DNA of 64,000 bases from Candidatus Levybacteria bacterium RIFCSPHIGHO2_01_FULL_36_15b (GCA_001782045.1 MFNK01000003.1:269049-333048); one strand, 5' to 3'; counted from the first letter of the stretch, positions 2,813 to 62,724 are shown. The notes: a model not told the origin generated them from the sequence alone. A program made the numbers and translations.

Positions 2813-4993
2813 TCACTCATCTTTCCTCTTCTTAATATTCATTACACCGTAATAAGACAGATATCCAGTGACTGCCAGTAAAGTAGTAAGACTCACTATT
2901 CCACCAAGATAGAGGTATAACTGAGGTTTAAAATAAACCGTCGCTTCGATATTATAACTGCCATCAGAATTTTGCTCGCAAGCTATTTGCTTGCAAATAG
3001 ATATGGGACTTAAGAGAAATGAATTAAGGGTAGCATCATTTTCAAAATGATTGCTGTCTGGAATTTGAATCATGGAGTCTTTATGTTCGGAAACTGTGAG
3101 AACTTTCCACCATGCAAAGTCTCCTACGTAAACTGTCCAATCGGGATGGTAACTTTCGGAGAAATTTAAGTAAAAAGGTTCTTTAACATTTTTTAAACTC
3201 ACAGAATATTGTGTGGGATGAACAAACTCATATGAAACCTTTTCAAAAGGAATTTCTTTTCTGATTGTTTCCTTCTCTTGTGTTATGTATAGATGGGGCA
3301 TAAAGTTCTCATTTTCATAAACAGCTAAGTCTTTCGTTCCTATATCTATTTTCTTAAGCCAAGTAATCTTATTCAGACTGTTTATGTAGTACTGTCTGGG
3401 TTCCCCGTAGTGTACAAAAAAGTCATCATCATTAGCCTTATCTTGGATTGGAACATAAACATATCTTATCGAAGACAATTTAAACAAATTTGGAGTATTT
3501 TTATAATTCAAAAAAGATAAAGTTTGCTGGGCTTGATTTGAATTATCATCTGATAAGAAGCTATTAAATAGATTCTTCCACTCAATATTTACAATATCAA
3601 TCAAGCTAATTTCCGGGTGAATATTTGTAAAGAAAGTCCACTTTGAAACTTTAGGTATCCAAAGAGTTCTAAAATAATCTGATTGTTTATTTATAAAATC
3701 TTTATTAACTATATAATCTTTTGGTATCGTGCGTGTGACAAAGAGGGTTCCTATCTCCCCTGTGATCAAAGGTTTCGTATTCCATAAAAATATTGCAATG
3801 ATTAGAATCGTAAGAAAATATTTTCCATAAACACTCATTCTAGTTTTTTTCCAATTCTTCCATAACCATGCCACAAAACCGGTAATCAGTACAGAATAAC
3901 CCAGAGCTGTAAGGGGATAAAACTTACTTGCTTCCCTAAAAGCATCAAATCCTGGCAAATGCAAATAAAGCCACAAATACAAACCTGGAAAAGGGGCTCC
4001 TGATTGTTTTGTTAGTAGAATACCCAAAAGAGCAAGTAAACCAAAAAATATTACAATTTTATTCTTTCTATTTAGATATAATCCCAAAAATGCAACAATA
4101 GGTATCAACCAATAATAAATAGGGATTTGTTGAGGATTAAATACTGCAGGTAAAGAACCTGACCAGAATGATTGGTAAAGCGTAATTGAATATAAAATGT
4201 TTGAAAATCCATCACCGAATAAACCTCTATGGAAGAGATCACTATTTGTTAAAGACCCCGAATGGGAAAGTCCCATTATCCAATAAGAACTAAGGAGAAA
4301 AGCGATTATTGCGGGTACCAGACCGACAGTAAATTTGTGAATTAAATGCCGTAATTGTTTTTTATTATTAATAAATAGTAAGTAGTAAATAAAATACATA
4401 GATAATATAATTCCCATTACATATCCCGCCCTAGTCTCATAAGAAATTATGATAAATAAAGATAGGGCTGTGAGCAATATATAAACTAATTTTTCTCTAT
4501 CTAGACTCTCTATGTAAAAAAATATTACTAGAGGAAACAAGGCAAAAGCTGCCATTAAGGTTAAGGTTCCAGTCTGCAAAATAAGAAAATACGTATTGAA
4601 ACTATAAATCAGAATACCTGTAACTACTGCGGCCTTATTCTTAAATAATTTATTAAGAAGAAAATATGAAGAAATTGGAGATAAAATTACAGCCGGCCAA
4701 AAATGAATGAGTCTTTCCGACAAAGCATAACTTAAGCCAAAATACTTTGAGAGTATTCCATATAACGCGTACGTTGGTGCTTGACTAACATCTACAATTA
4801 CACGACCAAAAGAAGCATCTCCTAACCATAGTGTGAAATAATATAAACGAAGACTGCTCATGGTTTCTTCAAAGAAAAAAATCCAATCTCCGCTCGTTAA
4901 AATTTCCAGGTTCAAGAACCAAGTGTGGTATACCACCATATAGATGACTATTAAAAAAATCATCCAGGACAAATGTTTTATCTTGTTAAACAT
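2813..4993 (-). CDS. Family A polytopic membrane protein (726 aa): N-terminal ~12-TM domain plus ~300-aa C-terminal extracytoplasmic domain and a terminal TM; putative GT-C-like glycosyltransferase
   Basis: Long hydrophobic N-terminal half and a hydrophilic C-terminal domain ending in the TM LYLGGIVSLTTLLAVTGYL. Paralogous to 14826-17048 and to partial 1-1819, with nucleotide-level similarity (e.g. aaacttac(c/t)tgcttccctaaa). Confidence 0.8.
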   Translation of the reverse strand: MFNKIKHLSWMIFLIVIYMVVYHTWFLNLEILTSGDWIFFFEETMSSLRLYYFTLWLGDASFGRVIVDVSQAPTYALYGILSKYFGLSYALSERLIHFWPAVILSPISSYFLLNKLFKNKAAVVTGILIYSFNTYFLILQTGTLTLMAAFALFPLVIFFYIESLDREKLVYILLTALSLFIIISYETRAGYVMGIILSMYFIYYLLFINNKKQLRHLIHKFTVGLVPAIIAFLLSSYWIMGLSHSGSLTNSDLFHRGLFGDGFSNILYSITLYQSFWSGSLPAVFNPQQIPIYYWLIPIVAFLGLYLNRKNKIVIFFGLLALLGILLTKQSGAPFPGLYLWLYLHLPGFDAFREASKFYPLTALGYSVLITGFVAWLWKNWKKTRMSVYGKYFLTILIIAIFLWNTKPLITGEIGTLFVTRTIPKDYIVNKDFINKQSDYFRTLWIPKVSKWTFFTNIHPEISLIDIVNIEWKNLFNSFLSDDNSNQAQQTLSFLNYKNTPNLFKLSSIRYVYVPIQDKANDDDFFVHYGEPRQYYINSLNKITWLKKIDIGTKDLAVYENENFMPHLYITQEKETIRKEIPFEKVSYEFVHPTQYSVSLKNVKEPFYLNFSESYHPDWTVYVGDFAWWKVLTVSEHKDSMIQIPDSNHFENDATLNSFLLSPISICKQIACEQNSDGSYNIEATVYFKPQLYLYLGGIVSLTTLLAVTGYLSYYGVMNIKKRKDE

Positions 4994-6291: not shown

Positions 6292-7284
6292 ATGATAAAC
6301 CAGCATATTACAATATTCATTCCAACATACAATAACGAGACAACTATTTTAGATACCCTACAAAGCATAGAAAGACAGAAAACAAATCAGATTCGTAAAA
6401 TAATCATTATCGATGATGGGTCAACTGATCAAACTATAGATCTTATTAATAATCATATTAAAACTTCTCACATTGAATTCAATTTTATCAAGAACACCAA
6501 ACCAACAGGATTGTCTAGAAAATATAATAAGGCAATTGATTTAGTTAAAACAGAGTTATTGATAATAATGCACGCTGATATTGTAATAGAGAGAAATAAT
6601 GCTATAGAAAAATATTATAAAATTATGGAAAACGAAAGCAATGTTGCGGCCATAAGTAAGATTAGACATAGATTCGAAGACTGGAAAAAATTTACTTTTT
6701 GGGAAAAATGTGAATTCGATAGATTCCTCATGTCTCAAAGGCATTTTCTTGCTGCCAAATTTGATATTTATAGAGTTTCTGCTCTTAAAAAAGTCGGTAA
6801 GTTTGATGCAGAAAAATATTACGCGGGAGGAGAGGATGCTGATTTGTGGTTAAAACTAGAGAAATTAGGAAACATCATAAAATCAGAAAACGTGTATATA
6901 CATAAACAATCTTTCGCTAAAGATTATTCTCTTTTTAGATTAATTTATAGAAGTGCAAGATATGCAGAAGCGGCAGGGGCAGTACTTAAAAACCATTACA
7001 GTCAATATAGTCTTATAGATCTAATGTTACTTTTCTTCAGAGAATTTCTAACTTTATTTTTCGTAATTGGACTTGTCATCTATTTATTATTTGAAATATC
7101 TCTATTGCTAATTGCAGCAATATTTTTATTTATATTGTTTTCTTTTGCAAACACGAAAAATACTTATTTATATTCTGGTATGAACCCAAGAATTTTAATT
7201 TTACCTTTCGTCAATGTTTGCTTAATCTTTGTAAGCAATTTTTTTGTTCTCAGAGGGTTCATAAGGGGTAAAGAAGTTTTATAA
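6292..7284 (+). CDS. Glycosyltransferase family 2 with C-terminal transmembrane segments
   Basis: N-terminal IFIPTYNNETTILDTLQSI...IIIIDDGSTDQT (GT-A DxD region). The C-terminal ~80 aa are hydrophobic. Confidence 0.8.
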   Translation: MINQHITIFIPTYNNETTILDTLQSIERQKTNQIRKIIIIDDGSTDQTIDLINNHIKTSHIEFNFIKNTKPTGLSRKYNKAIDLVKTELLIIMHADIVIERNNAIEKYYKIMENESNVAAISKIRHRFEDWKKFTFWEKCEFDRFLMSQRHFLAAKFDIYRVSALKKVGKFDAEKYYAGGEDADLWLKLEKLGNIIKSENVYIHKQSFAKDYSLFRLIYRSARYAEAAGAVLKNHYSQYSLIDLMLLFFREFLTLFFVIGLVIYLLFEISLLLIAAIFLFILFSFANTKNTYLYSGMNPRILILPFVNVCLIFVSNFFVLRGFIRGKEVL

Positions 7285-7315
7285 GTCCAATTGCAAAGGC
7301 TTCAAATGTTGTTCA

Positions 7316-8167
7316 CTATAATGTATTTTCCTTCAAAAATCTTCTTAGTCCGTCCTCCCATCTTGGTAAAACAATACCCATCTCCCTGGCCTTCGTATTT
7401 TTTAAAGGTGAGAATAATGGCGGCTTAGATGGCCTGTCAAAATCTTTTAAACTTATTGGAATTATGTTTATTCCATCTACATCGGAAAGTGCAAAAGCTT
7501 TTTTTGCCAACTGTAGCCTAGAAGCCATACCCTCGTTAACTAAGTGATAAAGTCCGAATTCATCAGATAATAATAATTCCTTAATAGCAGCAGCAAGATC
7601 TAGGGAATATGTAGGTGAGCTTATTTCATCTTTAACTATTCGAATTTGCTTGAGTTCCTTAGCTTTGCTAAATATTACATAAAGAAAATTGCGGCTCCAT
7701 TTACTGTATAACCAAGAAGTTCTAATGATAAAGTATTTTTTTAAATTCTCTTTTATGATATTTTCGGCGTGAAATTTTGTTTTACCCGCAATCGTTATTG
7801 GATTTGCCTTATCTTTTTCGATGTAAGCAGACTTCTTTTTGCCATCAAATACCTCGTTAGTACTTACAAAAAGAAGTGGAATGTCAAATTTTTTACATAC
7901 CTCCACAATATTTCTTGTTCCCTCTACGTTAATTCTATATGCTAGATCAGGATCTCTCGCGCAGTCATCGGCTCGAGTTAAAGAGGCAAAATGAAAAATC
8001 TTTCTAGGCTTAATTTTCGAGATTATCTTTGATACAAGATTTTTGTCTGTTACATCAAGCTCACTTTTAGTGGCCAAATAAAGTTCTCTTTTGGGGTATA
8101 CATCTAACATCGATTTTGCCAGTTGTCCATTACCTCCTGTTACCAATATGAGATTATTTAATTCCAT
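7316..8167 (-). CDS. RmlD-family NAD(P)H-dependent 4-keto-6-deoxy-sugar-nucleotide reductase (dTDP-4-dehydrorhamnose reductase-like)
   Basis: 283 aa. LILVTGGNGQLAK (Rossmann), AGKTKFHAE (YxxxK-like), IIRTSWLYS, GLYHLVNEG and LPRWEDGLRRFL align with RmlD. Confidence 0.75.
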   Translation of the reverse strand: MELNNLILVTGGNGQLAKSMLDVYPKRELYLATKSELDVTDKNLVSKIISKIKPRKIFHFASLTRADDCARDPDLAYRINVEGTRNIVEVCKKFDIPLLFVSTNEVFDGKKKSAYIEKDKANPITIAGKTKFHAENIIKENLKKYFIIRTSWLYSKWSRNFLYVIFSKAKELKQIRIVKDEISSPTYSLDLAAAIKELLLSDEFGLYHLVNEGMASRLQLAKKAFALSDVDGINIIPISLKDFDRPSKPPLFSPLKNTKAREMGIVLPRWEDGLRRFLKENTL

Positions 8168-8275
8168 TAAATTTTTGAAAAAGTATTAAACTTGTGTACA
8201 TATTATCATTTTTTATACATCTATTCTACATTCGTAGGTATTTCACTTTTTAAAAAAACATGATATATTTGCAAA

Positions 8276-9355
8276 ATGGCGGCAAAGAGAGCATTAATTA
8301 CAGGAGTTACAGGGCAGGATGGCTCATACATGGCAGAACTTCTTCTGGAAAAAGGCTACAAAGTATACGGTCTTCAGAGACACGCAAGTTATCCAAATAC
8401 ATCACGTATAGACCATTTACTTAATAATGCTAAATTTCCAAATTTCCAAACTGCCTTTGGCGATCTTTCCGATAGCGCAAACATTGCTGCAATTATTGAC
8501 AAGGCGGAGCCCGATGAAATTTATAATCTTGGAGCGCTTAGTCATGTCGGAGTTAGTTTTACAATGCCCGAGTATACAGTGGATGTTACAGGATTAGGGG
8601 CACTACGTATCTTAGAAGCCATACACCAGTTAAAGGCACCAACTAAATTTTATCAAGCTGGATCATCAGAAATGTTTGGAGCCGTTGAAAAACAGACGTT
8701 TCAGAACGAAAATACTCCATTTAATCCTCAATCTCCATATGCTATGTCAAAAGTTCTTGCTTTTCATACAACTCGGATATATAGAAAAAGCTACAATATT
8801 TTCGCAGCCAATGGAATTCTTTTTAATCACGAATCACCGCGACGGGGGGTATCTTTTGTTACACGGAAAATAACATTGGGTTTATCCCGAGTGAAGCTAG
8901 GACTGCAGGATGTACTTATGCTTGGTAACTTAAATGCTAAAAGAGATTGGGGATACTCAAGGGATTATGTTGAAGGAATTCATAAAATATTAAATTACAA
9001 AACGGCAGATGATTTCATCCTGGCAACTGGTGAGACACATACTGTACGTGAGTTTGTTGAGAGTGTTGCCAAGCAATTGGGATTTGATTTGGCGTGGAAA
9101 GGAAAGGGCCTAAAGGAAAAAGGCATTGATCGTAAGACTGGGAAAAAAATTATAGGCATAGATCCGGTCCACTTTCGTCCTGCAGAAGTAGATTATCTTC
9201 TCGGCGACTCATCAAAAGCAAGAAAGCTCCTTGGCTGGAAACCTAAAGTTAATTTCCAACAATTAGTTGAAATCATGATCAAGCATGATTATGATCTTAT
9301 GAAAAAAAATTTGGGAAAGGGACATAAATTAGTAACTAGACACCGTTTTTATTAA
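8276..9355 (+). CDS. gmd: GDP-mannose 4,6-dehydratase
   Basis: ALITGVTGQDGSYMAELLLEKGYKVYG, GSSEMFG, SPYAMSK, ILFNHESPRRG, FVTRKIT and DPVHFRPAEVDYLLGD are near-identical in pattern to bacterial Gmd. Confidence 0.95.
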   Translation: MAAKRALITGVTGQDGSYMAELLLEKGYKVYGLQRHASYPNTSRIDHLLNNAKFPNFQTAFGDLSDSANIAAIIDKAEPDEIYNLGALSHVGVSFTMPEYTVDVTGLGALRILEAIHQLKAPTKFYQAGSSEMFGAVEKQTFQNENTPFNPQSPYAMSKVLAFHTTRIYRKSYNIFAANGILFNHESPRRGVSFVTRKITLGLSRVKLGLQDVLMLGNLNAKRDWGYSRDYVEGIHKILNYKTADDFILATGETHTVREFVESVAKQLGFDLAWKGKGLKEKGIDRKTGKKIIGIDPVHFRPAEVDYLLGDSSKARKLLGWKPKVNFQQLVEIMIKHDYDLMKKNLGKGHKLVTRHRFY

Positions 9356-9380
9356 ACACAACTAACTAAATTCACATAAT

Positions 9381-9761
9381 GTGGAAAAAATAGCATATAA
9401 AAATAACTTAATAGCTCTTCGGCTAAAAAAAATTAAAAATGGAGTAATGTCTTTTACTGAACCAAGCGAGCCGATACAGCTTGTAACTCATAAAAGGTCC
9501 TTGGGAGAATACACAAAGGCGCACCTTCATTCACCCAAGAAACGTACTACGAATAAACTGCAGGAGTGCTTAGTTCTTATAAAGGGAAAGATAAAAATTG
9601 ACTTATATAATAGTGAGAAAAAATACTTCAAGTCTATTTTCATATCAGCAGGAGAAGCTGTTATATTCGTTAGTGGAGGACATGGTGTGCATATACTCGA
9701 GGACAGCGAAATTATAGAGATTAAGAATGGCCCTTTTATCGAAGATAAGGTTTTAATTTAA
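9381..9761 (+). CDS. Small cupin-fold protein, WxcM/FdtA-like sugar-nucleotide ketoisomerase/epimerase-like
   Basis: 126 aa with a His-x-His region (KAHLHSP) and C-terminal ...GGHGVHILEDSEIIEIKNGPF. Paralog of 18191-18589. Confidence 0.5.
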   Translation: MEKIAYKNNLIALRLKKIKNGVMSFTEPSEPIQLVTHKRSLGEYTKAHLHSPKKRTTNKLQECLVLIKGKIKIDLYNSEKKYFKSIFISAGEAVIFVSGGHGVHILEDSEIIEIKNGPFIEDKVLI

Positions 9762-9775
9762 ATTAAAACAATATT

Positions 9776-10435
9776 ATGAAAATTCTGGTTTTTGGAGGGG
9801 GAAGCGATCTTGCACAACAAATATATACCATGCAGAGGAACACTATCCTTGTGGAGCATGATGCCTGCGATATAAGTAGACCCAAGTCTGTGAAGAAGTT
9901 TATTCAAGCTCATAAGCCTGAAGTAGTAATAAATTGTGCTGGTTTGGTACAATCAGGATTAGTCAAGCAGCAAGATTTCGAGGATTGGAAAAATCAAGTT
10001 TTCACTAATTTAATTGGTAGTTTTAACATAGCTCAAGCAGCCACTAATAATGACGTAAAAACAATTATTTTAGTTGGCTCAGTTACGGGCTTATATGGAA
10101 AACCCAAATACAGCGCCTACTCAGCTGCAAAAGCCGGTGTCATTTCACTTGTCCAGTCTCTAGGTATGGAAGGAATTAACGCATATTGTGTCTCACCTGC
10201 TCGCATAGATACAAAGATGCGAAATAAAGAATTTCCCAACGAAGACAAGAGAAGCAGACTAACAACTCACGATGTGGCTAAGGTTATATTTGACTGCATT
10301 AATGGTAAATATAGGGCCGGAGATAATGTAATTATACTAAAACGGAAGTTCAGAAAGATTACCAGGGTTGACAGTGGACAGCCTTGGAAAGAATACCTAA
10401 ACATTAAACCTTACGAAACAGCTAAAACAATATAA
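9776..10435 (+). CDS. Short-chain dehydrogenase/reductase (SDR), probable sugar-nucleotide ketoreductase
   Basis: MKILVFGGGSDLAQQI (Rossmann), YSAYSAAKAG (YxxxK). Confidence 0.7.
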   Translation: MKILVFGGGSDLAQQIYTMQRNTILVEHDACDISRPKSVKKFIQAHKPEVVINCAGLVQSGLVKQQDFEDWKNQVFTNLIGSFNIAQAATNNDVKTIILVGSVTGLYGKPKYSAYSAAKAGVISLVQSLGMEGINAYCVSPARIDTKMRNKEFPNEDKRSRLTTHDVAKVIFDCINGKYRAGDNVIILKRKFRKITRVDSGQPWKEYLNIKPYETAKTI

Positions 10436-10483
10436 TATTTGAGAAATTTCTTAAAAAGAAATATAATCAAACCTTAATTCCTT

Positions 10484-11710
10484 ATGTTGGCAAAAAAATG
10501 CATTGTCTGCAGTAAATCAAATTTAACAAGAGTGATTGAGCTAGGTTTTCATCCATTAGCTGACACTTTCCTCAAAAAAGAACAACTATTGACTCCCCTA
10601 AGTACGTATCCACTCAACTGCTTACTCTGCAAAAACTGTGGACATTTACAGAATGAATACTTTACCTCAAGAGAAGAAAGATATATAGAAAGTAATTATA
10701 GCTATACATCTTTCAATTCAGAAACGGCAATAAAACATTGGATTGAGTTTTTCAATAATGTAAGTAAATATACTAACTTAAGCACTTCCGATCACGTAAT
10801 AGAATTCGGCTCAAACGACGGACATTTGCTTTCACATTTCAAAAAGAAAGGCGTTAAGGTGACTGGCATTGACCCTTCCCCCATTATGACCAGCCAGGCA
10901 AGAAAAATAGGCGTTGACTCAATAGCGGGGTTTGTAGGAAAAGATACAATCTCAACTGCTATAAAAATTAAAGGTAAAGCAAAAATAATCATGGGAAATA
11001 ACGTTCTGAATCATATTGAAAATTTAAAATCAGCCATGGACGGAGTAGTACAAGGCCTAAAGAAAGATGGCTATTTTGTTTTTGAAGTACCATCTTTAAA
11101 AGATACTTTAGAAAAATACTTGTTTGATATGATATTTCATGAGCATGTTTCTACGTTTAGCGTGCGCTCGGCAGATACGATGCTTAAAAGATACGGGCTT
11201 TACATTACGCATGTTGAGTACATAAACTACCATGGTGGCTCGCTAAGATTCATTTCTAGTCTAAATTCATCAGACTATAATTTCTCTCTTGTAAGTAAAT
11301 TTATTGAAGCGGAAGAGAAAGCAAAAATATTCAAACCAGAAACGTATACCAAGTTTATGGCAAAAATAGCTAAAGACCGGAATGATGTTTTGGCAAAGAT
11401 ATATAGCCTTAAGAAGCAGGGTAAAAAAATAGCCGCCGTTGGGGCTGGCGCAAGAAGTAATACGCTCCTAAACTTCTATAGACTCGATAAATATTCAGTC
11501 GAATTTGTTACAGACGCTTCAATGCATAAGATTGGAAAGTATACCCCCGGATCTTTTTTACTTATAAAAGATGACACTAGCCTTAAGAAAGAAAATATCG
11601 ACGTGGTTTTAATAACCGCTTGGAATATTGGTAAATATTTAACTCAGAAAATAAAGAATATAAATGATAAACTAGAAGTTATTGTCCCTGGAGAAAAAGA
11701 ACTATTGTGA
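10484..11710 (+). CDS. NDP-hexose C-methyltransferase-like (TylC3/NovU-type: Zn-ribbon + class I SAM MTase + C-methyltransferase C-terminal domain)
   Basis: N-terminal CIVCSKS...CKNCGHLQ zinc-ribbon-like Cys pairs and the SAM motif VIEFGSNDGHLL. Its 408-aa length is typical of sugar C3-methyltransferases. Confidence 0.65.
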   Translation: MLAKKCIVCSKSNLTRVIELGFHPLADTFLKKEQLLTPLSTYPLNCLLCKNCGHLQNEYFTSREERYIESNYSYTSFNSETAIKHWIEFFNNVSKYTNLSTSDHVIEFGSNDGHLLSHFKKKGVKVTGIDPSPIMTSQARKIGVDSIAGFVGKDTISTAIKIKGKAKIIMGNNVLNHIENLKSAMDGVVQGLKKDGYFVFEVPSLKDTLEKYLFDMIFHEHVSTFSVRSADTMLKRYGLYITHVEYINYHGGSLRFISSLNSSDYNFSLVSKFIEAEEKAKIFKPETYTKFMAKIAKDRNDVLAKIYSLKKQGKKIAAVGAGARSNTLLNFYRLDKYSVEFVTDASMHKIGKYTPGSFLLIKDDTSLKKENIDVVLITAWNIGKYLTQKIKNINDKLEVIVPGEKELL

Positions 11711-12141
11711 AGAAAACTAAAATTAAAATAGCTACGGAAGATGATCGAGGTAATATCTCTGATATTTTTTATAACCATCCGATTGATCACGTGGCAATTA
11801 TCCGTTCAAAGAAGGGAACATTCCGCGGAGACCACTATCATAAATTCACTACCCAGCATATATACATGGTGAAGGGGAGTCTAAGGTATTATTTTCGAAA
11901 AGTAGACGAAGATAATAGCAAGGTAAGAAGCACTATTATCCACGAGGGAGAACTAGTAACAACTGTCCCCAACGAAATACATGCTCTCGAAATGATTGAA
12001 GATAATCAATTCATAGCTTTTTCAGAAGGCAAGAGAGGCGGAGATGATTATGAATCAGATACTTTTCGGGTCTCTCCATCTATAATGAAAAACTACAGAA
12101 AAATTCACCCTACTGGCTCTGCAGGAAGACCTAAAAAATAG
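11707..12141 (+). CDS. FdtA/QdtA-like cupin (NDP-4-keto-6-deoxyhexose 3,4-ketoisomerase-like)
   Basis: 144 aa with the R-G-x-H-x-H motif (FRGDHYHKF) of FdtA-type isomerases. Confidence 0.6.
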   Translation: MKKTKIKIATEDDRGNISDIFYNHPIDHVAIIRSKKGTFRGDHYHKFTTQHIYMVKGSLRYYFRKVDEDNSKVRSTIIHEGELVTTVPNEIHALEMIEDNQFIAFSEGKRGGDDYESDTFRVSPSIMKNYRKIHPTGSAGRPKK

Positions 12142-12164
12142 ATAGAGACTATTTTCTGAAAAAC

Positions 12165-13292
12165 CTATCCCCTTTCCAGAAATTTAAACTTTCCTTGGTA
12201 ATAATTCTCATAATAAAAATGCCGATTGAACCTCTTTACGCCTTTAATGTAGCCTAGATAATTCATCTTAATATTTTTTACGGCATTAGTTAGAGAAGGT
12301 TGAGTCCTTTCAACTATTTCTCCTGCTTTATATTCTTGGATATAAGAAGCGATGCTTGGTATATTAGACATGATAACTGGCAAGCCTAGTTCCAAATACG
12401 TCTTGACTTTACCTGGATCAGTGTAATAAGTAACGTTTGAAGGATTATCCTCATAGAGTGCTATTCCTATCTGACACTGTCTAGATATATCAATTAACTC
12501 ATCTTCTGAAAAAAATCTATTTGGAAAGTATACCCGATCCTCTATCTTAAGTTTTTTTATTACTGTCATATATTTTGAAAATAAATTTTTCTCACATACT
12601 CCAATTATCTTTAATTTATATTCTCTGTTGTCTTTTAAGAAATCAAAAAATAATTCAAGACCCTGAGACGGCTTTATTAATCCTATAAATAGAATATTAA
12701 GTCCTTCCCTTTTTAAAGTTCGCTTAATTTCTTTTGGGTTAACCCCCAACATAACCGTCTTACGATTCATATTGCTTAAAACCTGTCCATTTAGAATTTT
12801 ATTAATCATATTACTTGCATAACAGGAATATGACACCCTGTCGTGATAAAATTTTTTTAGCCTCTCGAATAAAAGAATGAATATATTATTTCCCGGAAAA
12901 TAATCCCCTACCCAATAAACGAAATCAATATTTCTCCAAAAATTTTGCATTGTGGTTCCAAAAAAAAATACCGGATGAAAAACCACTGCAAAAAAACGTT
13001 CTTTTCTGGTATAGTATTTCCTTAGTGCTTTAAGATATTCGAGATACCATACTAAATAGTATAAAAAAACATTTTGAGATAAAATGAATGGCTTTTCTTC
13101 AATAAGTTCTCCGTATTTGTATAGCCTTACTGTATTATCTTTATTTTTTACTCTTGGCATTACGATAAATACGACAAGTTTCTCTGTGTGTGCGATAAAA
13201 TACTCAAGCGTGTTGCCTATGAATTGATGACTAGATTGAAGGAAAATATTTTTGTATCTAAAAATTGGTTTATCTTTTTTATTATCCGGCAT
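12165..13292 (-). CDS. GT-B fold glycosyltransferase (GT4/GT1-like)
   Basis: C-terminal ...DISRQCQIGIALYEDNPSNVTYYTDPGKVKTYLELGLPVIMSN... resembles the donor-binding domain of family 1/4 glycosyltransferases. Confidence 0.6.
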   Translation of the reverse strand: MPDNKKDKPIFRYKNIFLQSSHQFIGNTLEYFIAHTEKLVVFIVMPRVKNKDNTVRLYKYGELIEEKPFILSQNVFLYYLVWYLEYLKALRKYYTRKERFFAVVFHPVFFFGTTMQNFWRNIDFVYWVGDYFPGNNIFILLFERLKKFYHDRVSYSCYASNMINKILNGQVLSNMNRKTVMLGVNPKEIKRTLKREGLNILFIGLIKPSQGLELFFDFLKDNREYKLKIIGVCEKNLFSKYMTVIKKLKIEDRVYFPNRFFSEDELIDISRQCQIGIALYEDNPSNVTYYTDPGKVKTYLELGLPVIMSNIPSIASYIQEYKAGEIVERTQPSLTNAVKNIKMNYLGYIKGVKRFNRHFYYENYYQGKFKFLERG

Positions 13293-13297
13293 AAAAT

Positions 13298-13996
13298 TTA
13301 AGTATTTACTTTCTTATATTTAATAAAAATCCCCATAAAACCCTTTTTATTTGAATCATACTCCAATATTTCTTTATTAATTAAATTTCTACTAAAGAAT
13401 GGTCCCCTTCTGAATAACCATTTAGATGTATACAGATTTAAAAGACTTATTAACGTCCATATACCACCTTTTACAAATACCTCTTCTACTTGAAAATTGC
13501 TCTTCATTCCCAAATTTATAAGCTTCTCTGAGGTATAGTGCCTATGGCCAATTAACCACCAAGCGGGGTCTAAATACTTAGATAAAATTGAATCGTAGGG
13601 AGTAGACAAATAAAACTTCCCATTCTTTTTCAAAACGCGATTTACTTCTCTGAACATTCTATTTTCTGAATTATTTGGAATGTGCTCTATTACTTCCCAA
13701 GCAACAACAGTATCAAAATATTTATCTTTAAATGGTAGTTTTAATGCTCCACCGATTTTAAAAATTGCTCTATTATCTTTAATTGTTTTAGCAGCTTTTA
13801 AATCTTTTTTTGTTATCTCTATTCCGGTTATTTCCTTTACTCCTCTATTTAATGCATTCAACTCAAACCAACCAAAGCCACAACCTATGTCTAACACTTT
13901 TTTGTTCTGTATATCCGAATCATTAACAAAATTTATACTTTGCCTCAGTCTGGCATTTAATTCTAACACCGGCTTTTCATTCAAAATATTTTTCAT
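13298..13996 (-). CDS. Class I SAM-dependent methyltransferase
   Basis: VLDIGCGFGWF (motif I), ...KKNGKFYLSTP (motif post-II). Confidence 0.75.
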   Translation of the reverse strand: MKNILNEKPVLELNARLRQSINFVNDSDIQNKKVLDIGCGFGWFELNALNRGVKEITGIEITKKDLKAAKTIKDNRAIFKIGGALKLPFKDKYFDTVVAWEVIEHIPNNSENRMFREVNRVLKKNGKFYLSTPYDSILSKYLDPAWWLIGHRHYTSEKLINLGMKSNFQVEEVFVKGGIWTLISLLNLYTSKWLFRRGPFFSRNLINKEILEYDSNKKGFMGIFIKYKKVNT

Positions 13997-14826
13997 TTTC
14001 TTAGAATATAACCTATACCACCTACTGCAAATTCACACGTTTTCATAAATAACATTCCGATTCCGAGAAGTGGATTTGAGAATAGTTTACTGGGATTGGA
14101 GAAAAATAACTCATATCTTTTAATCAAACTCAGTTGTTGTTTTGTTTTTAAATTGTTTATTTTTTTAGAGGAATAACTATTTAACTGTTTAGAGTAATAC
14201 ATTTTCTTACTTAAAAGAGTCCCAAGAGATAGATTTCCTTCATTATGATTTATATAGCTTTTTATCCTTCCCAGTTGGTATTTTTTTTCAACTCTCTGGC
14301 TTAAATCCCAATCTTCTCCGCTAACCAAGCTGTCATCATATCCACCAGATTCGTTAAAAACATTTTTTGGGAAAAACCTAGCTGCCTCTAGCCAACCCAC
14401 CCCTTCATAGAAACTTCGCTCCAGAGCCTTGCATTGTGCCCAAAAACCTTTTCCAAAAGATTTTTCAGGAATAATTATACCTCCAATTTTTCGATCTGCA
14501 TTTTTTATTCTTTGTTCTTTGATGATTTTTACACAATCCTGTGCAACCCTTGGTGTTAATTCCATATCGCTATCTATGAAAAGTAGATGTTCGCCTTTTG
14601 CCTTTGATGCACCGAAGTTTCTCTGTACGCTTCTTTCCGGACCTTTATTAAAAACTAGTTTTGTGTACTTCTTTGCAATTTCTTTCGTTTTATCAGTAGA
14701 ATAATTATCAACAACTATTATTTCAATATTGTCATATGTCTGGTTCTTTATACTTTTAATACAAGCATCCAAAAAAACAGCAGAATTTTTTGTTGGAACA
14801 ATAATAGATAGTAAAGGATTTATCAT
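13993..14826 (-). CDS. Glycosyltransferase family 2
   Basis: LLSIIVPTKNSAVFLDACIKSIKNQTYDNIEIIVVDNYSTDKT and a FIDSDME acidic motif. The start overlaps the upstream stop by 1 nt (TAATG). Confidence 0.8.
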   Translation of the reverse strand: MINPLLSIIVPTKNSAVFLDACIKSIKNQTYDNIEIIVVDNYSTDKTKEIAKKYTKLVFNKGPERSVQRNFGASKAKGEHLLFIDSDMELTPRVAQDCVKIIKEQRIKNADRKIGGIIIPEKSFGKGFWAQCKALERSFYEGVGWLEAARFFPKNVFNESGGYDDSLVSGEDWDLSQRVEKKYQLGRIKSYINHNEGNLSLGTLLSKKMYYSKQLNSYSSKKINNLKTKQQLSLIKRYELFFSNPSKLFSNPLLGIGMLFMKTCEFAVGGIGYILRK

Positions 14827-17048
14827 TATTTTCCTATTATTTTAAATTTTAATCGCTTTGCACGAAATACTATTTTCAAAATATAGACAATCAGATAAAT
14901 AAACACTCCTATAAAAGTCGCCAGGGATATATACGTTCCAATATTTACTAGGTCTTGAGGTATATAGTAAAGTCTTAGATTAAAGTTTATACTTCCATCT
15001 GTATTTTTAGTGTAAGATTCTGTACTGTAATTTTTTATAATGTCTGTGGGGTTGATATAAAAAACATTAAATTGCATGTCTGTTTGCAAATGATCTTTGT
15101 CAGAGAGTTGATGCTTGCCTTCTAATTCCAAAGCCCAATCTTTCGCATAGGTATTATTAAAATTAAGGTACAGCGGTTTGTTTATATTTTTTATTTCTAT
15201 TGTGTATTCTGCAGCATTTATATACTTATAATCTACAACTTTATATGGAACTTTTTTATAAACAGTTTCCATTTCTTCTGTAATGTATATAAGAGGTTTA
15301 TAATTAAAATTTTCATATGCTACCATATCTTTTGTCCCAATATCTATTCTTTTAATAAAGTTTAAATTATCAAAAAAGTTAATAATAAAAGGACGATCGT
15401 TTATGCTTGTACCCAGAAACATATCGTCATCAGGAGTATCTTTATATTGTGGTGGGATAACAATATATTTCGTGCTAGTTATATCTAAAAAATTGTCGGA
15501 AAAACTTTGATTTAGTACTTCAAAATTCCAGGGTAGATCGGGAGCTACTTTAGTGGTGTTATATACATGTTCCTTATATTTAGGATTTTTTTTGAATTCC
15601 AAATACCACGCATAAGCATCGTAGTATATTACATAGCGTGGATGAAGATTGTCAAAATAGCTCCACTTGCTAAGCGCAGGAAACCATAATGTTCTAGAAA
15701 ATTGAGTATCATTTTCTAAGATCTCTGCCAAAATTTTGTAATCAGCTGGAAGACTGATGGTATTAAATAATCTCCCGATTTCTCCAGTGAAAAGAGGTTT
15801 TGCATTCCAAATAAAAACACTTGCTATTACAACAAGAATTAAATAACGAGCATAGAAGAAGTAGTTTCTACTTACTTTGATCTGCATTAGTGATTTTACA
15901 AAAGCTCCAATCAATACGCTATAACCAAGCGCTACTAGCATATAGAATTTGCTTGCCTCTCTATACGCATTAAAACCCGGAAAATGATTGTAAAGCCAAA
16001 GATATAAATGTGGAAAGGGGTTGTCCTCCTGTTTTGCCAGTAAAATTCCCAATGCCGCTATGAAAGCAAAAAACCAGACTTTTTTATTTCTATAGTTAAA
16101 TATCAGTCCGAGTGCTGCTATATTTGGTATTAACCAAAAATAGAATGGGATTTGTTGTACGGTAAATACCTTTAGGGATTCCCCTGTCCAGTAAGGATGA
16201 AAGAGCGTTACAGCATGCGAAAGATAGAAAAAATGACTTCCAAATAACGCACGGTCGAATGCCACATTATGGAATAAAGTATCAGAAAGATAAAAAGGCA
16301 TTATCCAGAAGGAGTTCAAAAGAAACATGACTACAAAAGGGATGATTCCAAACATCAAAGTAGAAAAAATTCGTTTAAAGTTACGGTTTTTTATATTTGA
16401 AAAAACCTTATAAACAACATAAAAGAGCATTATCCACAGTACTATATATAGTATTCTGAAATCGTAGGAACCTGCTATAAAGCCCACTAAGCCCACAATT
16501 AGGCTTAAAATCAATTTCTTATTATCGATGCTCTTTATGAATAAATAGAGGATTAAAGGGGTGAATCCATAAGCTACGGCCCATTGAGCTGTGCCTGTCT
16601 GTAAAACAAGTGCAGGCACATTATAACCATATACTAATGCACCAACAATAGCGGCAGTCTTATTTTTCAATAGATATGATATGAGCATAAAACTTCCAAT
16701 GAGAGACAGTATCGCCATGGGAACGAGATATACTAACTTAGAAGCAATTATTGTACTTTGGAAAAAAGTACAGAGACTACCATACATTAAACTGAGAGAT
16801 GGGTACATCGAAAGAACGAAGTTTATCCTACCAAAGCCGGAACCACTTGTGTCTAAGGTCCAAGCGCTAGGAGATGAATAGATATCTCTACAAGTATTAA
16901 TAAACCAACTGAATTGGGAGGTATCCCCGGAGGAAAAAATTTCATTCATGAAAATCCACCTCCAGTGTGTAATTAACGCTATAAGGACAAGAATCATTAC
17001 TGGATAATATTTTTTTATTATATGCACCATATAGATTACGATGTTCAA
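14826..17048 (-). CDS. Family A polytopic membrane protein (740 aa), paralog of 2813-4993
   Basis: Same architecture and shared segments (FNAYREASKFY, IDIGTKDMVAYENFNYKPLIYITEE, PLYLNFNNTY...). Confidence 0.8.
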   Translation of the reverse strand: MNIVIYMVHIIKKYYPVMILVLIALITHWRWIFMNEIFSSGDTSQFSWFINTCRDIYSSPSAWTLDTSGSGFGRINFVLSMYPSLSLMYGSLCTFFQSTIIASKLVYLVPMAILSLIGSFMLISYLLKNKTAAIVGALVYGYNVPALVLQTGTAQWAVAYGFTPLILYLFIKSIDNKKLILSLIVGLVGFIAGSYDFRILYIVLWIMLFYVVYKVFSNIKNRNFKRIFSTLMFGIIPFVVMFLLNSFWIMPFYLSDTLFHNVAFDRALFGSHFFYLSHAVTLFHPYWTGESLKVFTVQQIPFYFWLIPNIAALGLIFNYRNKKVWFFAFIAALGILLAKQEDNPFPHLYLWLYNHFPGFNAYREASKFYMLVALGYSVLIGAFVKSLMQIKVSRNYFFYARYLILVVIASVFIWNAKPLFTGEIGRLFNTISLPADYKILAEILENDTQFSRTLWFPALSKWSYFDNLHPRYVIYYDAYAWYLEFKKNPKYKEHVYNTTKVAPDLPWNFEVLNQSFSDNFLDITSTKYIVIPPQYKDTPDDDMFLGTSINDRPFIINFFDNLNFIKRIDIGTKDMVAYENFNYKPLIYITEEMETVYKKVPYKVVDYKYINAAEYTIEIKNINKPLYLNFNNTYAKDWALELEGKHQLSDKDHLQTDMQFNVFYINPTDIIKNYSTESYTKNTDGSINFNLRLYYIPQDLVNIGTYISLATFIGVFIYLIVYILKIVFRAKRLKFKIIGK

Positions 17049-17264: not shown

Positions 17265-18194
17265 ATGAAAATATTAGTTGCTGGCGGAACCGGATTCCTG
17301 GGACTCCACGTTGTAAATAGATTAAAGAAGGAGAATTTACCCTTTATAACTGCTTCTCTTTCTCAAGGTATCGATTTTAGAAATTATAAGCAGACGGAAA
17401 AATTCTTTAAAGAAAATAAAATAGATACTGTGATATATTGCGCTGCTTTTGTGGGAGGAATTTCCTATGGCTATGAGAAACCGGCAGAGAGCTATTACAA
17501 CAATATCCTGATGGCTACGAATTTAATAGAACTCTCCAGAATATATAAAGTTAAAAGGTTTATAAATCCTATCTCAAATTGCTCGTATCCAGGACACCTA
17601 ACGAAAAAACTCAAGGAAGAGTTATGGTGGGATGGACCACTTCATGAGTCTGTACTGGCCTACGGAATTGCTAGAAAAGCAAGTTGGGTACAGACTTGGG
17701 CATATAACAAGCAATATGGTATGGATTTTATTAATCTGATACTACCCAATATGTATGGACCTTCGGATCACTTCGACGAAAAAAAGTCTCATGTAATAGG
17801 TGCACTAATAATGAAGATGTGTGACGCAAAGGCAGAAGGTAGGAAAGATGTAATTGTCTGGGGTAGCGGAAAACCGATCCGAGAGTGGTTATACGTAAAA
17901 GACGCTGTGACGGTTATCTTAAAATCTATATCAATAACCCCAACTATAGAGCCAATAAATATTGGGATAGGCGAAGGTATTTCTGTAAGAGCACTCGCCG
18001 AATTAATTAAAGATATTGTGGGCTATAAAGGGAAGCTAGTTTACGATCCTACTAAGCCAGATGGGGCGCCCTATAAAATAATGGACAACAAAAGGATGAT
18101 TAAGCATTTTATGGGCTGGATTCCGCCCACTAAATTGAGAGATGGGATAGAAGAAACTGTTGAATGGTATTTGAATAATAAAAAGAAAGCATGA
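17265..18194 (+). CDS. fcl: GDP-L-fucose synthase (GDP-4-keto-6-deoxy-D-mannose 3,5-epimerase/4-reductase)
   Basis: MKILVAGGTGFLG, NMYGPSDHF, SHVIGALI, VIVWGSGKPIREWLYVKD and KPDGAPYKIMD all align with E. coli Fcl. Confidence 0.85.
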   Translation: MKILVAGGTGFLGLHVVNRLKKENLPFITASLSQGIDFRNYKQTEKFFKENKIDTVIYCAAFVGGISYGYEKPAESYYNNILMATNLIELSRIYKVKRFINPISNCSYPGHLTKKLKEELWWDGPLHESVLAYGIARKASWVQTWAYNKQYGMDFINLILPNMYGPSDHFDEKKSHVIGALIMKMCDAKAEGRKDVIVWGSGKPIREWLYVKDAVTVILKSISITPTIEPINIGIGEGISVRALAELIKDIVGYKGKLVYDPTKPDGAPYKIMDNKRMIKHFMGWIPPTKLRDGIEETVEWYLNNKKKA

Positions 18195-18589
18195 ATATAA
18201 TTAAAGGTGGGAAATTGTTTGCAATCATTCATAAGAAAGAGGATTGGAAAGAAGAATTAAACTTTCTCACTCCAAATGACATGTTTTGTCAAGTTGGAAC
18301 ATGGTGGTATCAAAAGAATAAACATCTTAAGGCACATAAGCATATTTATAATCCTCGTAAAGCTTCAATGACTCAGGAATGTGTGATCGTTATTGTTGGC
18401 AAAATTAAAGCTACAATTTTCGATAACAATGATAAAATTATTCATACGGATATACTTACAGCAGGAGACTTACTTGTTTGCTTCGAGGGAGGCCACAGCT
18501 ACGACATTTTGGAAGATGATACAAAAGTTATTGAATGCAAGAATGGACCATTCGTTTCTGTGGAAAAAGATAAGGTAACAATTGAATGA
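18191..18589 (+). CDS. Small cupin-fold protein, paralog of 9381-9761 (WxcM/FdtA-like)
   Basis: 132 aa with KAHKHIY (H-x-H) and ...EGGHSYDILEDDTKVIECKNGPF. Translationally coupled (ATGA overlap) to fcl. Confidence 0.5.
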   Translation: MNIIKGGKLFAIIHKKEDWKEELNFLTPNDMFCQVGTWWYQKNKHLKAHKHIYNPRKASMTQECVIVIVGKIKATIFDNNDKIIHTDILTAGDLLVCFEGGHSYDILEDDTKVIECKNGPFVSVEKDKVTIE

Positions 18590-19308
18590 TTTCAAATATA
18601 GTTTTATTTTCAGATAGAGAAGATGTTAAGCACTGCATCGCTTATTTAAGAAAAAAGGGAGTGCCTATTCTATATATAGTTTCCAACAAATTAAAAGACA
18701 GCAATTATAATTTAGAGATTAGAAAGAATATTGTAGATAGAGATTATAAAAATTCAATCTTAATATCATATTACTACGGAAGTTTAATAGAGAAAAAAAT
18801 TTTTAATCGTTTTAAGGTAGCAATCAATTTCCACCCCGCACCCCTCCCTTTATATAGAGGAGTTAAATGCGGTGTTCATGCAATACTAAACGAAGAAAAA
18901 AAATTTGGTGTCTCTTGTCACATCATTACTGAAAGATTTGATGATGGTGAAATTTTGGGCAAACTAGAGTTTCCAATAGATGATATTGAAACAGGATATT
19001 CAATTAATATAAAAAGCAGAAAGAAACTATATGATTTATTTAAAAGATACATAAATAAATATATATTTGGGGAAAATGTAAATATGTATGAAATACTAGA
19101 TAATATTAGTTATAATTTATCATCTCCAACTTATTTTTCTGGAAAAGATTTTGAAAAACTAAAATGTTTGGATGGAATTAATCCTTATTCTGTTTATGCA
19201 AAAAAAATAATAAGAGCTATGTGGCATCCTAAGTACATGGACACTTATTATACAAATAAAAAAAAGGAGAAAATCTATCTTTCACATACACCAGCTGAGG
19301 TGAGCTAA
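18586..19308 (+). CDS. Formyltransferase-domain protein, probable sugar N-formyltransferase
   Basis: INFHPAPLPLYRG (the N-x-H...HPS/A-LP-x-YRG N10-formyl-THF motif of Fmt/PurN/ArnA), followed by an Asp (DDGEI) at the expected spacing. Confidence 0.65.
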   Translation: MISNIVLFSDREDVKHCIAYLRKKGVPILYIVSNKLKDSNYNLEIRKNIVDRDYKNSILISYYYGSLIEKKIFNRFKVAINFHPAPLPLYRGVKCGVHAILNEEKKFGVSCHIITERFDDGEILGKLEFPIDDIETGYSINIKSRKKLYDLFKRYINKYIFGENVNMYEILDNISYNLSSPTYFSGKDFEKLKCLDGINPYSVYAKKIIRAMWHPKYMDTYYTNKKKEKIYLSHTPAEVS

Positions 19309-19310
19309 AT

Positions 19311-20417
19311 ATGAAAAACAAGAACAACAAGAAAATTGACTTTATACCTCAAATGGAACCCTCTTTTGATGAAAATGAAACTAATCAATTAATAAAGTAC
19401 ATGAGAGGAGGGGGATGGGTCACAGAGTTCAAAAAAACCCAGGAGTTTTCAGAAATGGTGCGCGACTATACAAAGTCAAAGTTCTGTTCTATCGTGTCCA
19501 ACGGCACTGTAAGCTTATATATAGCACTTATGGCATGCGGAGTAAGAAAGGGGGACGAAGTTATTGTTCCTGATTACACTATGATTGCAAGTCCAAATGC
19601 AATAGTTCTTGCTGGAGCAAAACCAGTTTTTTGCGATATAGAAAAAGCGACACTTTGTTTAGATTTTGAGCTATTTAAAAAACTCGTCAATCCTAAAACG
19701 AAGGCTGTAATGCTGGTAACAGTAAATGGAAGATACCCAACAAAATATATGGATATAGTTAACTTTTGTAAAGAAAATAAAATATTCTTAATAGAAGACG
19801 CAGCGCAATCATTTGGATCATTTTATAAGAAGAAACATCTTGGAACGTTTGGAGATATTGGAAGTTATTCATTCAGTGCTCCAAAAATAATAACTACCGG
19901 GCAAGGAGGAGCCTTAGTTACAGACAATCCTGAACTTTATGAAAAAATAAGAAAGATCAGGGATTTTGGACGAGAAAATCCAGGCAATGACCATTATCTT
20001 ACTCTTGGCTGGAATTTTAAATTTACTGATCTCCAAGCTGTCATAGGAATAGAACAACTAAAAAAAATGAAATTCAGAGTAAAAAGAAAAAAAGAGATAT
20101 ATAAATTATATACAAAATTATTGAGGAACAATAATAAGATTGAACTTATACCAACAAATCTTGAGGATACATCACCATGGTTTAACGATATTCTTGTGGA
20201 GAAAAGGACTGAATTAATAGAATTTTTAAAAATGAGTAATATAGGGACTCGGGAATTTTATCCAGCACTTCATTCAACCCCGGTATATAATATAAGAAAA
20301 GAGTTCCCGATTACTGAAATGGTTGCCAGAAAAGGCCTATGGCTACCATCCTCTGTCAAATTAACGGACGAAGATATAGCGTACATCTGTTCTAAGATAA
20401 ATGAATTTTATAAATAA
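19311..20417 (+). CDS. DegT/DnrJ/EryC1/StrS-family PLP-dependent sugar aminotransferase
   Basis: ...SAPKIITTGQGGALVTDNPELYEKIRKIRDFGRE... (PLP-lysine region). Length is 368 aa. Confidence 0.85.
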   Translation: MKNKNNKKIDFIPQMEPSFDENETNQLIKYMRGGGWVTEFKKTQEFSEMVRDYTKSKFCSIVSNGTVSLYIALMACGVRKGDEVIVPDYTMIASPNAIVLAGAKPVFCDIEKATLCLDFELFKKLVNPKTKAVMLVTVNGRYPTKYMDIVNFCKENKIFLIEDAAQSFGSFYKKKHLGTFGDIGSYSFSAPKIITTGQGGALVTDNPELYEKIRKIRDFGRENPGNDHYLTLGWNFKFTDLQAVIGIEQLKKMKFRVKRKKEIYKLYTKLLRNNNKIELIPTNLEDTSPWFNDILVEKRTELIEFLKMSNIGTREFYPALHSTPVYNIRKEFPITEMVARKGLWLPSSVKLTDEDIAYICSKINEFYK

Positions 20418-20424
20418 TATTTAG

Positions 20425-34508: not shown

Positions 34509-34510
34509 TT

Positions 34511-46476: not shown

Positions 46477-46537
46477 AGACTAATTCTATCAACTTTCAAT
46501 TTTTATTGCATAAAACTAAGACCTTCTCTATAATTAA

Positions 46538-46771
46538 GTGGTGAATAATTTTCTAATTCCGCAAATTCCCTCATTGCTTCTTTTTGCAGCTTTCCTTTGG
46601 ACTTTGCTTTGGAAAGGCATAGCACTATGGAGAGCCGCCAACTTAAAACAAAAGAATTGGTTTATAGCAATTCTTGTTTTAAACACGTTAGGAATTCTAG
46701 AGCTTGTTTACTTGTTTTATTTTGCTAAAAAAAGGCTTACCATACAAGAACTTAAATTTTGGGAAAAATAA
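46538..46771 (+). CDS. Possible small 2-TM membrane protein (77 aa, GTG start), PLDc_N-like pattern
   Basis: Two hydrophobic helices (LLLFAAFLWTLLW / WFIAILVLNTLGILELVYLFYF). Its 3' end overlaps the convergent gene 46697-49051 by 75 nt, which lowers confidence. Confidence 0.3.
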   Translation: MVNNFLIPQIPSLLLFAAFLWTLLWKGIALWRAANLKQKNWFIAILVLNTLGILELVYLFYFAKKRLTIQELKFWEK

Positions 46772-62722: not shown

Positions 62723-62724
62723 TT

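Follow-up and report, generated by a model that had tools for sequence, protein, structure and literature searches.

We analyzed a 64,000-nt stretch of DNA (hereafter, the window) from Candidatus Levybacteria bacterium RIFCSPHIGHO2_01_FULL_36_15b (GCA_001782045.1 MFNK01000003.1:269049-333048), an uncultured groundwater bacterium, with attention to a nucleotide-sugar gene cluster at positions 7316-12141 that probably directs the synthesis of a guanosine diphosphate (GDP)-linked, C-methyl-branched 6-deoxyhexose. Every sizeable open reading frame (ORF) of the window was run against profiles (Pfam and NCBIfam/TIGR models), and the flanks were inspected 8-10 kb past both ends, which brings the DNA covered to ~82 kb. 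The six ORFs that the initial annotation placed in the cluster, coding for an RmlD-like reductase, Gmd, two cupins, a short-chain dehydrogenase/reductase (SDR), and a C-methyltransferase, are all present, and their coordinates proved exact. Five of them are read from the plus strand: gmd (8276-9355), encoding a GDP-mannose 4,6-dehydratase; cupA (9381-9761), a small cupin (126 aa; HxH motif); sdr219 (9776-10435), a 219-aa classical SDR (SDR219); cmt (10484-11710), a nucleoside diphosphate (NDP)-hexose C-methyltransferase of the TylC3/TcaB9/MtmC family (C-MT); and cupB (11707-12141), a 144-aa NDP-ketosugar cupin. Because the gaps from gmd to cmt measure only 25, 14, and 48 bp and cupB begins with a GTG that runs into the cmt stop codon (4-bp overlap), gmd-cupA-sdr219-cmt-cupB constitute one operon, in which cupB is translationally coupled to cmt. 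The sixth gene, encoding an RmlD-family NAD(P)H 4-ketoreductase (7316-8167, minus strand), diverges from gmd, 108 bp away.

A promoter and terminator scan of positions 7000-12500 returned counts equal to those of shuffled sequence (22 promoter-like sites vs 20 ± 3.8, and 2 terminators vs 3.2). A sigma-70-like site at 10439-10467 (plus strand; TTGAGA, 17 nt, TATAAT; 11/12 match) lies 17 bp 5' of the cmt start and, judging by its sequence, may serve as an internal promoter of cmt and cupB. The contig that carries the window recurs across several metagenome assemblies. C-MT, cupA, and cupB each have >100 detectable homologues; the relatives of C-MT bear the names Patescibacteria, Levybacteria, Nealsonbacteria, and Yanofskybacteria, and for cupA an identical protein is recorded under Candidatus Levybacteria bacterium RIFCSPLOWO2_01_FULL_36.

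The first gene of the operon codes for a genuine Gmd. Its product scored 454.7 bits against TIGR01472 (cutoff 415), with residues 4-341 aligned to model positions 1-341 at equivalog level, and 3.3e-129 against PF16363, which bears out its assignment as the maker of GDP-4-keto-6-deoxy-D-mannose. C-MT displays the three-domain architecture of sugar C-methyltransferases, namely an N-terminal Cys4 zinc ribbon (Methyltransf_13; PF08421, 1.3e-15, 57.7 bits, cutoff 31.3), a class I S-adenosylmethionine (SAM) domain (PF13489, 2.8e-20, 73.1 bits), and a C-terminal nucleotide-sugar domain (Methyltransf_14; PF08484, 3.2e-33, 115.2 bits, cutoff 23.5). Its closest solved relatives are MtmC (PDB 4rv9, 6.3e-58 over residues 5-389, i.e., full length), TcaB9, and KijD1, all of them 3-C-methyltransferases working beside a 4-keto group. 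Across 116 homologues (48-100% identity), the positions conserved in at least 97% comprise C6, C9, C49, C52, Y74, E107-FGSNDG113, N176, H177, and H219-E220-H221. The HEH motif aligns with that of MtmC, preceded by Phe218 (IFHEH) in the window C-MT vs Tyr (IYHEH) in MtmC; the correspondence of these residues to TcaB9 numbering is one that we presume, aided by the MtmC alignment. At the sequence level, the Zn-binding Cys4 site, the SAM motif, the Tyr, and the Glu-His place C-MT within the TylC3/TcaB9 family, and the earlier call of an NDP-sugar C-methyltransferase with a Zn ribbon stands. The domain architecture also rules out a non-sugar (protein or small-molecule) methyltransferase. The C-terminal motifs GAxA(K/R)xNTLLN, KxGxxxPG, and AWNxG are shared with MtmC, which uses thymidine diphosphate (dTDP)-sugars, so that nucleotide specificity cannot be read from them.

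Gmd is the sole 4,6-dehydratase in the window. None of RmlA, RmlB, RmlC, and ManC was found in the ~82 kb, in line with the initial annotation, which had reported no RmlA/RmlB in the window. Two further genes for extended SDRs occur there, and both were rejected as rmlB: the product of 28017-28982 (321 aa) is GalE (392.8 bits vs a cutoff of 262.3, with the dTDP-glucose dehydratase model giving only 127), and that of 17265-18194 is Fcl-like (259.7 bits to GDPFucSynFcl, whose cutoff is 500). The latter gene opens a second nucleotide-sugar cassette (cassette II; 17265-21207, plus strand), which continues with a third, WbuC-like cupin of 132 aa (18191-18589; TIGR04366, 36.3 bits) and also encodes a formyltransferase (PF00551, 2e-13), a DegT aminotransferase (PF01041, 6.4e-93), and a protein of 260 aa that matched no family. 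Cassette II looks like a GDP-linked route to an N-formyl amino-deoxyhexose, either perosamine-like or 3-amino if its cupin is a ketoisomerase. As a single Gmd serves the window, this cassette must draw on the one at 8276; ~5 kb of opposite-strand genes lie between the cassette and the operon.

The placement of C-MT in an operon directly behind Gmd is repeated at seven other Patescibacteria loci. The order gmd-cupA-SDR-C-MT-cupB recurs at six loci (L006, L007, L021, L039, L040, and the P0040 locus; L021 lacks the SDR), and the closest loci share 63-79% identity in C-MT and, where BLAST was run (L006, L007, and L021), 77-87% in Gmd. All related loci that were examined carry the C-MT and cupB pair. 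At 55-58% C-MT identity (L009, L022, and L024), the pair lies beside DegT. Two of these loci, L009 and L022 (56-58% in C-MT), encode counterparts of the cassette II Fcl-like and DegT proteins (56% and 46-47% identity, respectively) directly next to it, with a Gmd gene (52-54%) within 5 kb; in L024, DegT is the only cassette II counterpart, encoded by the immediate divergent neighbor with no reductase gene nearby. L010-L013 and L023 (51%) carry other dehydratase-like SDRs, a true RmlB (L011), or UDP-type genes. Since C-MT and cupB stay constant while the surrounding context changes, they form a portable module, of which the window represents the Gmd-linked clade. This synteny is stronger evidence on the nucleotide than the absence of rmlAB.

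Some loci hold two C-methyltransferase paralogues, in tandem in L023 (6751-9248) and L014 (6234-9194) and 5 kb apart in L022 (14109-15383), a pairing in the sequence that hints at doubly branched sugars or at two distinct branched sugars.

Between cupA and C-MT, the operon encodes its own candidate ketoreductase. SDR219 (adh_short, 7.7e-20) carries the glycine motif GGGSDLA and the catalytic motif YSAAK, matches RmlD_sub_bind over residues 1-96 (8e-8), and has only FabG-like solved relatives. Genes for SDR219-like proteins (25-28% identity) flank C-MT and cupB in L010 and L011, which supports a functional link of SDR219 to this pair. The same slot is filled by the gene of an unrelated, extended-type SDR of 257-263 aa in L006 (7203-7994), L007 (7207-7998), L038 (5206-5982), L039 (5207-5998), L040 (5219-5992), and the P0040 locus. 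The versions in L038-L040 are 64-68% identical among themselves; this SDR matched no NCBIfam model and has no homologue in the window. A conserved reductase slot whose occupant has been swapped between lineages is a clear case of non-orthologous displacement.

The divergent RmlD is solidly assigned to its family (PF04321, 3.8e-71; TIGR01214, 240.6 bits; solved RmlD structures up to 3.9e-56, PDB 3sc6). Its usual partners RmlA, RmlB, and RmlC are not clustered with it, and a metagenome scan returned no relative above 41% identity. Its orthologues are missing from the syntenic operons, and at L006, L021, and L040 none adjoins the operon. In L007, L038, L039, and the P0040 locus, an RmlD gene lies on the strand opposite to the C-MT operon, ~4 kb downstream of it, with a product only 35% identical to the window RmlD and not orthologous to it. 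There, it adjoins genes for RmlC (PF00908) and an RmlB-like protein, as an rmlB-rmlC-rmlD set, in L039 (11055-13230), L038 (11143-13218), and the P0040 locus, and the gene of a 350-aa SDR of uncertain type, below every NCBIfam cutoff, in L007 (13083-15569, where no RmlC was profiled). The initial annotation had singled out the pairing of an RmlD-family reductase with Gmd as atypical. The adjacency is real in this genome; as a conserved feature it does not hold, and because the window RmlD is not kept with the operon and the relatives' RmlD belongs to nearby rml sets, we regard the pairing as peculiar to this genome. The window RmlD may have been recruited as a second 4-ketoreductase or may be left over from a dTDP-rhamnose set; we keep it as a second or alternative candidate for the 4-keto reduction, with an uncertain place in the pathway.

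The two cupins, previously described as FdtA-like, proved to be of different kinds. By sequence, cupB belongs with the CapF C-terminal cupin, passing PF14667 (39.6 bits, cutoff 28.7) and failing the FdtA profile PF05523 (13.4 bits, E 0.07, cutoff 23); it shares HxH...H motifs with the CapF domain, at marginal sequence similarity (E about 0.005-0.014). Its resemblance to FdtA/QdtA is one of fold only. Foldseek placed QdtA, FdtA, and FdtD on top, followed by CapF, ChmJ, WbcA, StrM, and RmlC, and the fold comparison values run closely together (CapF 13.5, FdtD 12.9, WbcA 12.8, GDP-heptose 3-epimerase 12.5, RmlC and StrM about 12.3). A PDB motif search with residues 11-65 returned generic metal-cupin motifs only, which do not separate ketoisomerases from epimerases. 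Structure identifies cupB as an NDP-4-ketosugar cupin, and the fold data do not tell a ketoisomerase from a mono-epimerase; an epimerase acting at C5 or C3 seems the likelier role, a 3,4-ketoisomerase less so. On the other hand, cupA has no Pfam match and gave a weak WbuC-like signal below the model cutoff (TIGR04366, 28.4 bits, cutoff 42). Its AlphaFold2 model (mean predicted local distance difference test score 91.9) is that of a generic cupin with no specific similarity to FdtA/QdtA-type ketoisomerases, and searches of solved structures with its single sequence and its profile yielded only noise. PF05523 matched neither cupA nor the third cupin (18191-18589), even at E up to 10. The FdtA-like label therefore survives for the fold of cupB and falls for its sequence and for cupA. 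We also rejected cupA and cupB as close paralogues (profile-profile probability of only 29%). In all closest loci, cupA lies directly 3' of gmd; it could act as a C3 epimerase or in an accessory function.

Beyond cupB, three minus-strand genes identified by Pfam encode a GT4 glycosyltransferase (12165-13292), a class I methyltransferase that may be a sugar O-methyltransferase (13298-13996), and a GT2 glycosyltransferase (13993-14826), all of them probable downstream users of the sugar. In L006, genes for the same GT4, class I methyltransferase, and GT2 lie 3' of cupB (65%, 67%, and 64% identity, respectively). A GT2 gene is found directly 3' of cupB in L009, L022, L024, L038, L039, and the P0040 locus, followed in the first three by that of a class I methyltransferase of about 229 aa. 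In L040, a small GIY-YIG nuclease gene (85 aa; 7735-7992) sits between cupB and GT2, and another GIY-YIG gene occurs just past the right end of the window (L037, 3984-4232). Small EamA-type membrane proteins are encoded near C-MT-cupB-GT2(220 aa)-methyltransferase in L022 (5505-5885) and L024 (4771-6743), the latter also with a PMT_2-type glycosyltransferase of the GT-C class. By analogy with ArnC/ArnEF/ArnT, which this EamA/GT2/PMT_2 set resembles, the arrangement suggests that the branched sugar might be carried on polyprenyl phosphate to a GT-C transferase outside the cytoplasm.

The window further holds genes for GT2 and GT4 transferases, two Wzx-like flippases, YfhO, PMT_2-type GT-C proteins, and the GalE mentioned above. 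Large arrays of paralogous membrane-protein genes occupy the minus strand at 28997-40950, 43163-49051, and 53762-63975 (five families, each with 3-4 members that are 24-43% identical), and the members that were profiled include YfhO, GT-C types matching PMT_2/PTPS_related, and a GT2-PMT_2 fusion (30547-32859). Glycan assembly takes up almost all of the 64-kb window, with glycosylation genes covering about 60 kb, which is a considerable part of a small genome of the candidate phyla radiation (CPR). Three paralogues of ~600-740 aa (31-36% identity), encoded on the minus strand at 1-1819, 2813-4993, and 14826-17048, are interleaved with the sugar genes; the two that were profiled had no Pfam match. 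Next to the L039 operon, the gene of a 917-aa protein partly matches window ORF 1846-2715 (45% over 114 aa).

We propose that gmd-cupA-sdr219-cmt-cupB would convert GDP-D-mannose into a GDP-activated C-methyl-branched 6-deoxyhexose. Gmd would oxidize and dehydrate GDP-mannose to GDP-4-keto-6-deoxy-D-mannose, a reaction established for its family and the only step assigned at equivalog level; the same intermediate would supply the Fcl-like/DegT/formyltransferase cassette 5 kb off. The following three steps are modelled on dTDP pathways. As in TylC3, TcaB9, and MtmC, C-MT would abstract the C3 proton beside the 4-keto group and transfer the methyl group of SAM to C3 of the resulting enolate. In the antibiotic pathways, EvaD or TylK act at C5 after EvaC or TylC3; likewise, cupB may reset the stereochemistry next to the ketone, most likely at C5 or, alternatively, at C3 before methylation, with cupA possibly catalyzing a second epimerization. 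NAD(P)H-dependent reduction at C4 would be performed by SDR219, possibly aided or replaced by the divergent RmlD. Finally, the GT4, the GT2, and the class I methyltransferase would build the sugar into a surface glycan and perhaps O-methylate it. The stereochemistry of the product is not readable from sequence.

A GDP-linked C-methyl deoxyhexose is the best-supported reading of the locus, with a probability that we put at roughly 0.6, because C-MT is a genuine sugar C-methyltransferase, its operon behind Gmd is conserved, Gmd is the only 4,6-dehydratase at hand, and the neighboring cassette is of GDP type. The initial annotation had likewise favored a GDP-linked substrate; that preference holds, although the absence of rmlAB it was drawn from is in itself weak evidence, since ManC is also missing from the same 82 kb. 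Several observations weigh against this reading besides the lack of ManC. All solved relatives of C-MT bind dTDP-sugars, and we know of no enzyme of this family shown to use a GDP-sugar. The window RmlD exceeds the NCBI equivalog cutoff for the dTDP enzyme (224.05 bits), and in four relatives an RmlD gene lies close to the C-MT operon, within an rmlB-rmlC-rmlD set in three of them. In L038, no gmd occurs within 6 kb of C-MT, and at 37-40% identity (L010-L013) C-MT and cupB are found near RmlB or other dehydratase-like SDRs. Furthermore, the regiochemistry of methylation (C3, C5, or other) and the roles of the cupins are inferred. The wider generalization, that the Patescibacteria module gmd-cupin-SDR-C-MT-cupin, often followed by GT2, defines a branch of sugar C-methyltransferases that work on GDP-sugars, in which two small cupin families replace RmlC/Fcl-type epimerases, stands at about even odds.

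The alternative that best survives, possible yet improbable, keeps the GDP linkage and differs in the end product. The C-methylated 4-keto intermediate would be handed over to the DegT aminotransferase and the formyltransferase of cassette II to yield a kansosamine-like 3-C-methyl-4-formamido-4,6-dideoxyhexose. One Gmd serves the whole window, cassette II homologues adjoin C-MT and cupB in L009 and L022, and the DegT gene of L024 diverges immediately from the pair with no reductase nearby, all of which fit such a handover. However, the in-operon gene in the window and its seven closest relatives encodes a reductase rather than an aminotransferase (the SDR is absent in L021), genes on the opposite strand keep cassette II and the operon 5 kb apart, and cassette II is self-sufficient for making an N-formyl amino sugar without methylation. 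The SDRs would in this case yield a second, reduced product; this alternative overlaps with the main reading and does not exclude it.

Somewhat less probable, and in our judgment unlikely, is that C-MT, the cupins, SDR219, and RmlD act on dTDP-4-keto-6-deoxyglucose supplied by RmlA/RmlB encoded elsewhere, as in mycarose- or noviose-like routes, leaving Gmd to serve only the fucose- or perosamine-like cassette. The use of dTDP-sugars by every characterized and solved member of the C-MT family speaks for it, as do the score of the window RmlD against the dTDP-4-dehydrorhamnose reductase model, the RmlD genes that four relatives have close to the operon (three of them with RmlC and RmlB alongside), and the true RmlB (396 bits) encoded 7 kb from the distant C-MT of L011. 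Against this, Gmd is encoded first in the operon, both in the window and at six further loci, an odd place for an unrelated gene to be conserved; rmlA, rmlB, and rmlC are absent from the 82 kb; and the window RmlD is no orthologue of the RmlD in the relatives' rml sets. Least probable is a GDP-linked pathway of other regiochemistry, in which cupB as a 3,4-ketoisomerase would move the ketone to C3, or C-MT would behave like NovU, placing the methyl at C4, C2, or C5 and making SDR219 a 3-ketoreductase: cupB fails the FdtA profile and passes that of the CapF epimerase domain, by fold CapF, ChmJ, WbcA, GDP-heptose 3-epimerase, and RmlC are nearly as close to it, and the nearest solved methyltransferases all methylate C3 beside a 4-keto group.

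If that wider generalization is right, many CPR bacteria would carry a surface branched-chain 6-deoxy sugar produced by a route undemonstrated in any organism. The glycosylation genes that fill the window show how much these bacteria with reduced genomes put into unusual surface glycans. The compact operon, with its small and probably soluble enzymes, offers a tractable system for the use of GDP-4-keto-6-deoxymannose by TylC3-family methyltransferases. It could also give functions to two cupin families, one PF14667-like and acting as C-MT partner, the other weakly WbuC-like and following Gmd.

Most of what is known of branched-chain C-methyl sugars comes from antibiotic pathways operating on dTDP-sugars, such as those of mycarose (TylC3/TylK/TylC2), epivancosamine (EvaC/EvaD/EvaE), and noviose (NovW/NovU/NovS), which run in the order 4,6-dehydratase, C-methyltransferase, cupin epimerase, and SDR 4-ketoreductase. 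The Levybacteria operon employs the same C-methyltransferase family, with the same three-domain architecture, and follows the same step logic. It differs in that the dehydratase is Gmd instead of RmlB, the cupins are not of the RmlC family (PF00908), no 2,3-dehydratase or 3-ketoreductase for 2-deoxygenation accompanies them, and the context is one of surface glycan assembly (GT2, GT4, GT-C, Wzx) rather than a secondary-metabolite cluster. In CapF, the C-terminal domain epimerizes C3 of a 4-keto-6-deoxy sugar ahead of reduction by the SDR. cupB resembles the cupin domain of CapF (Cap5F/WbjC) and the WbuC cupins of L-FucNAc-type loci in passing PF14667 and sharing the HxH...H motifs; unlike CapF, it is a stand-alone protein coupled to a methyltransferase and not fused to a reductase, and its presumed substrate is GDP-linked instead of UDP-linked. 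It further differs from the 3,4-ketoisomerases FdtA, QdtA, FdtD, and HCAN_0198 in its failure with the FdtA profile and in the lack of a coupled 3-aminotransferase in the operon, and a 3,4-ketoisomerase would have no obvious role after C3 methylation.

A demonstrated GDP-dependent C-methyltransferase was not found in the searchable literature, and to our knowledge the sole proposed GDP route is that of Coxiella virenose, a virulence determinant, which has never been reconstituted. Natural manno-type 3-C-methyl sugars include D-evalose and the 3-C-methyl-D-mannose of H. pylori (PMC12961483). For Coxiella burnetii, the agent of Q fever, a GDP-virenose pathway was proposed in silico from Gmd (CBU_0689), a TylCIII-like C-methyltransferase (CBU_0691), and a Fcl/GMER-like protein (CBU_0688) (PMC3539893). 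The earlier view of a GDP-activated C-branched pathway as unusual is therefore overstated, even if the Coxiella route is still called uncharacterized in 2026 (PMC13252051). As in Coxiella, the cluster here joins Gmd to a C-methyltransferase of the TylC3 family and to an epimerase/reductase function, an arrangement from which a GDP-activated 6-deoxy-3-C-methylhexose destined for a surface glycan is predicted (PMC3539893). We matched the two gene sets by their described functions; in the window, Gmd and C-MT share one operon and the Fcl-like gene lies 5.5 kb off, in cassette II. One bifunctional Fcl-like SDR is predicted in Coxiella, whereas two small cupins and a separate small SDR are found here, and a Gram-negative bacterium with lipopolysaccharide contrasts with a monoderm-type member of the Patescibacteria. 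Collectively, the logic of the Levybacteria operon matches that of both the proposed Coxiella GDP-virenose route and the dTDP routes, from which it is set apart by its dehydratase, by its two small non-RmlC cupins and small SDR, and by its surface-glycan context in the Patescibacteria.

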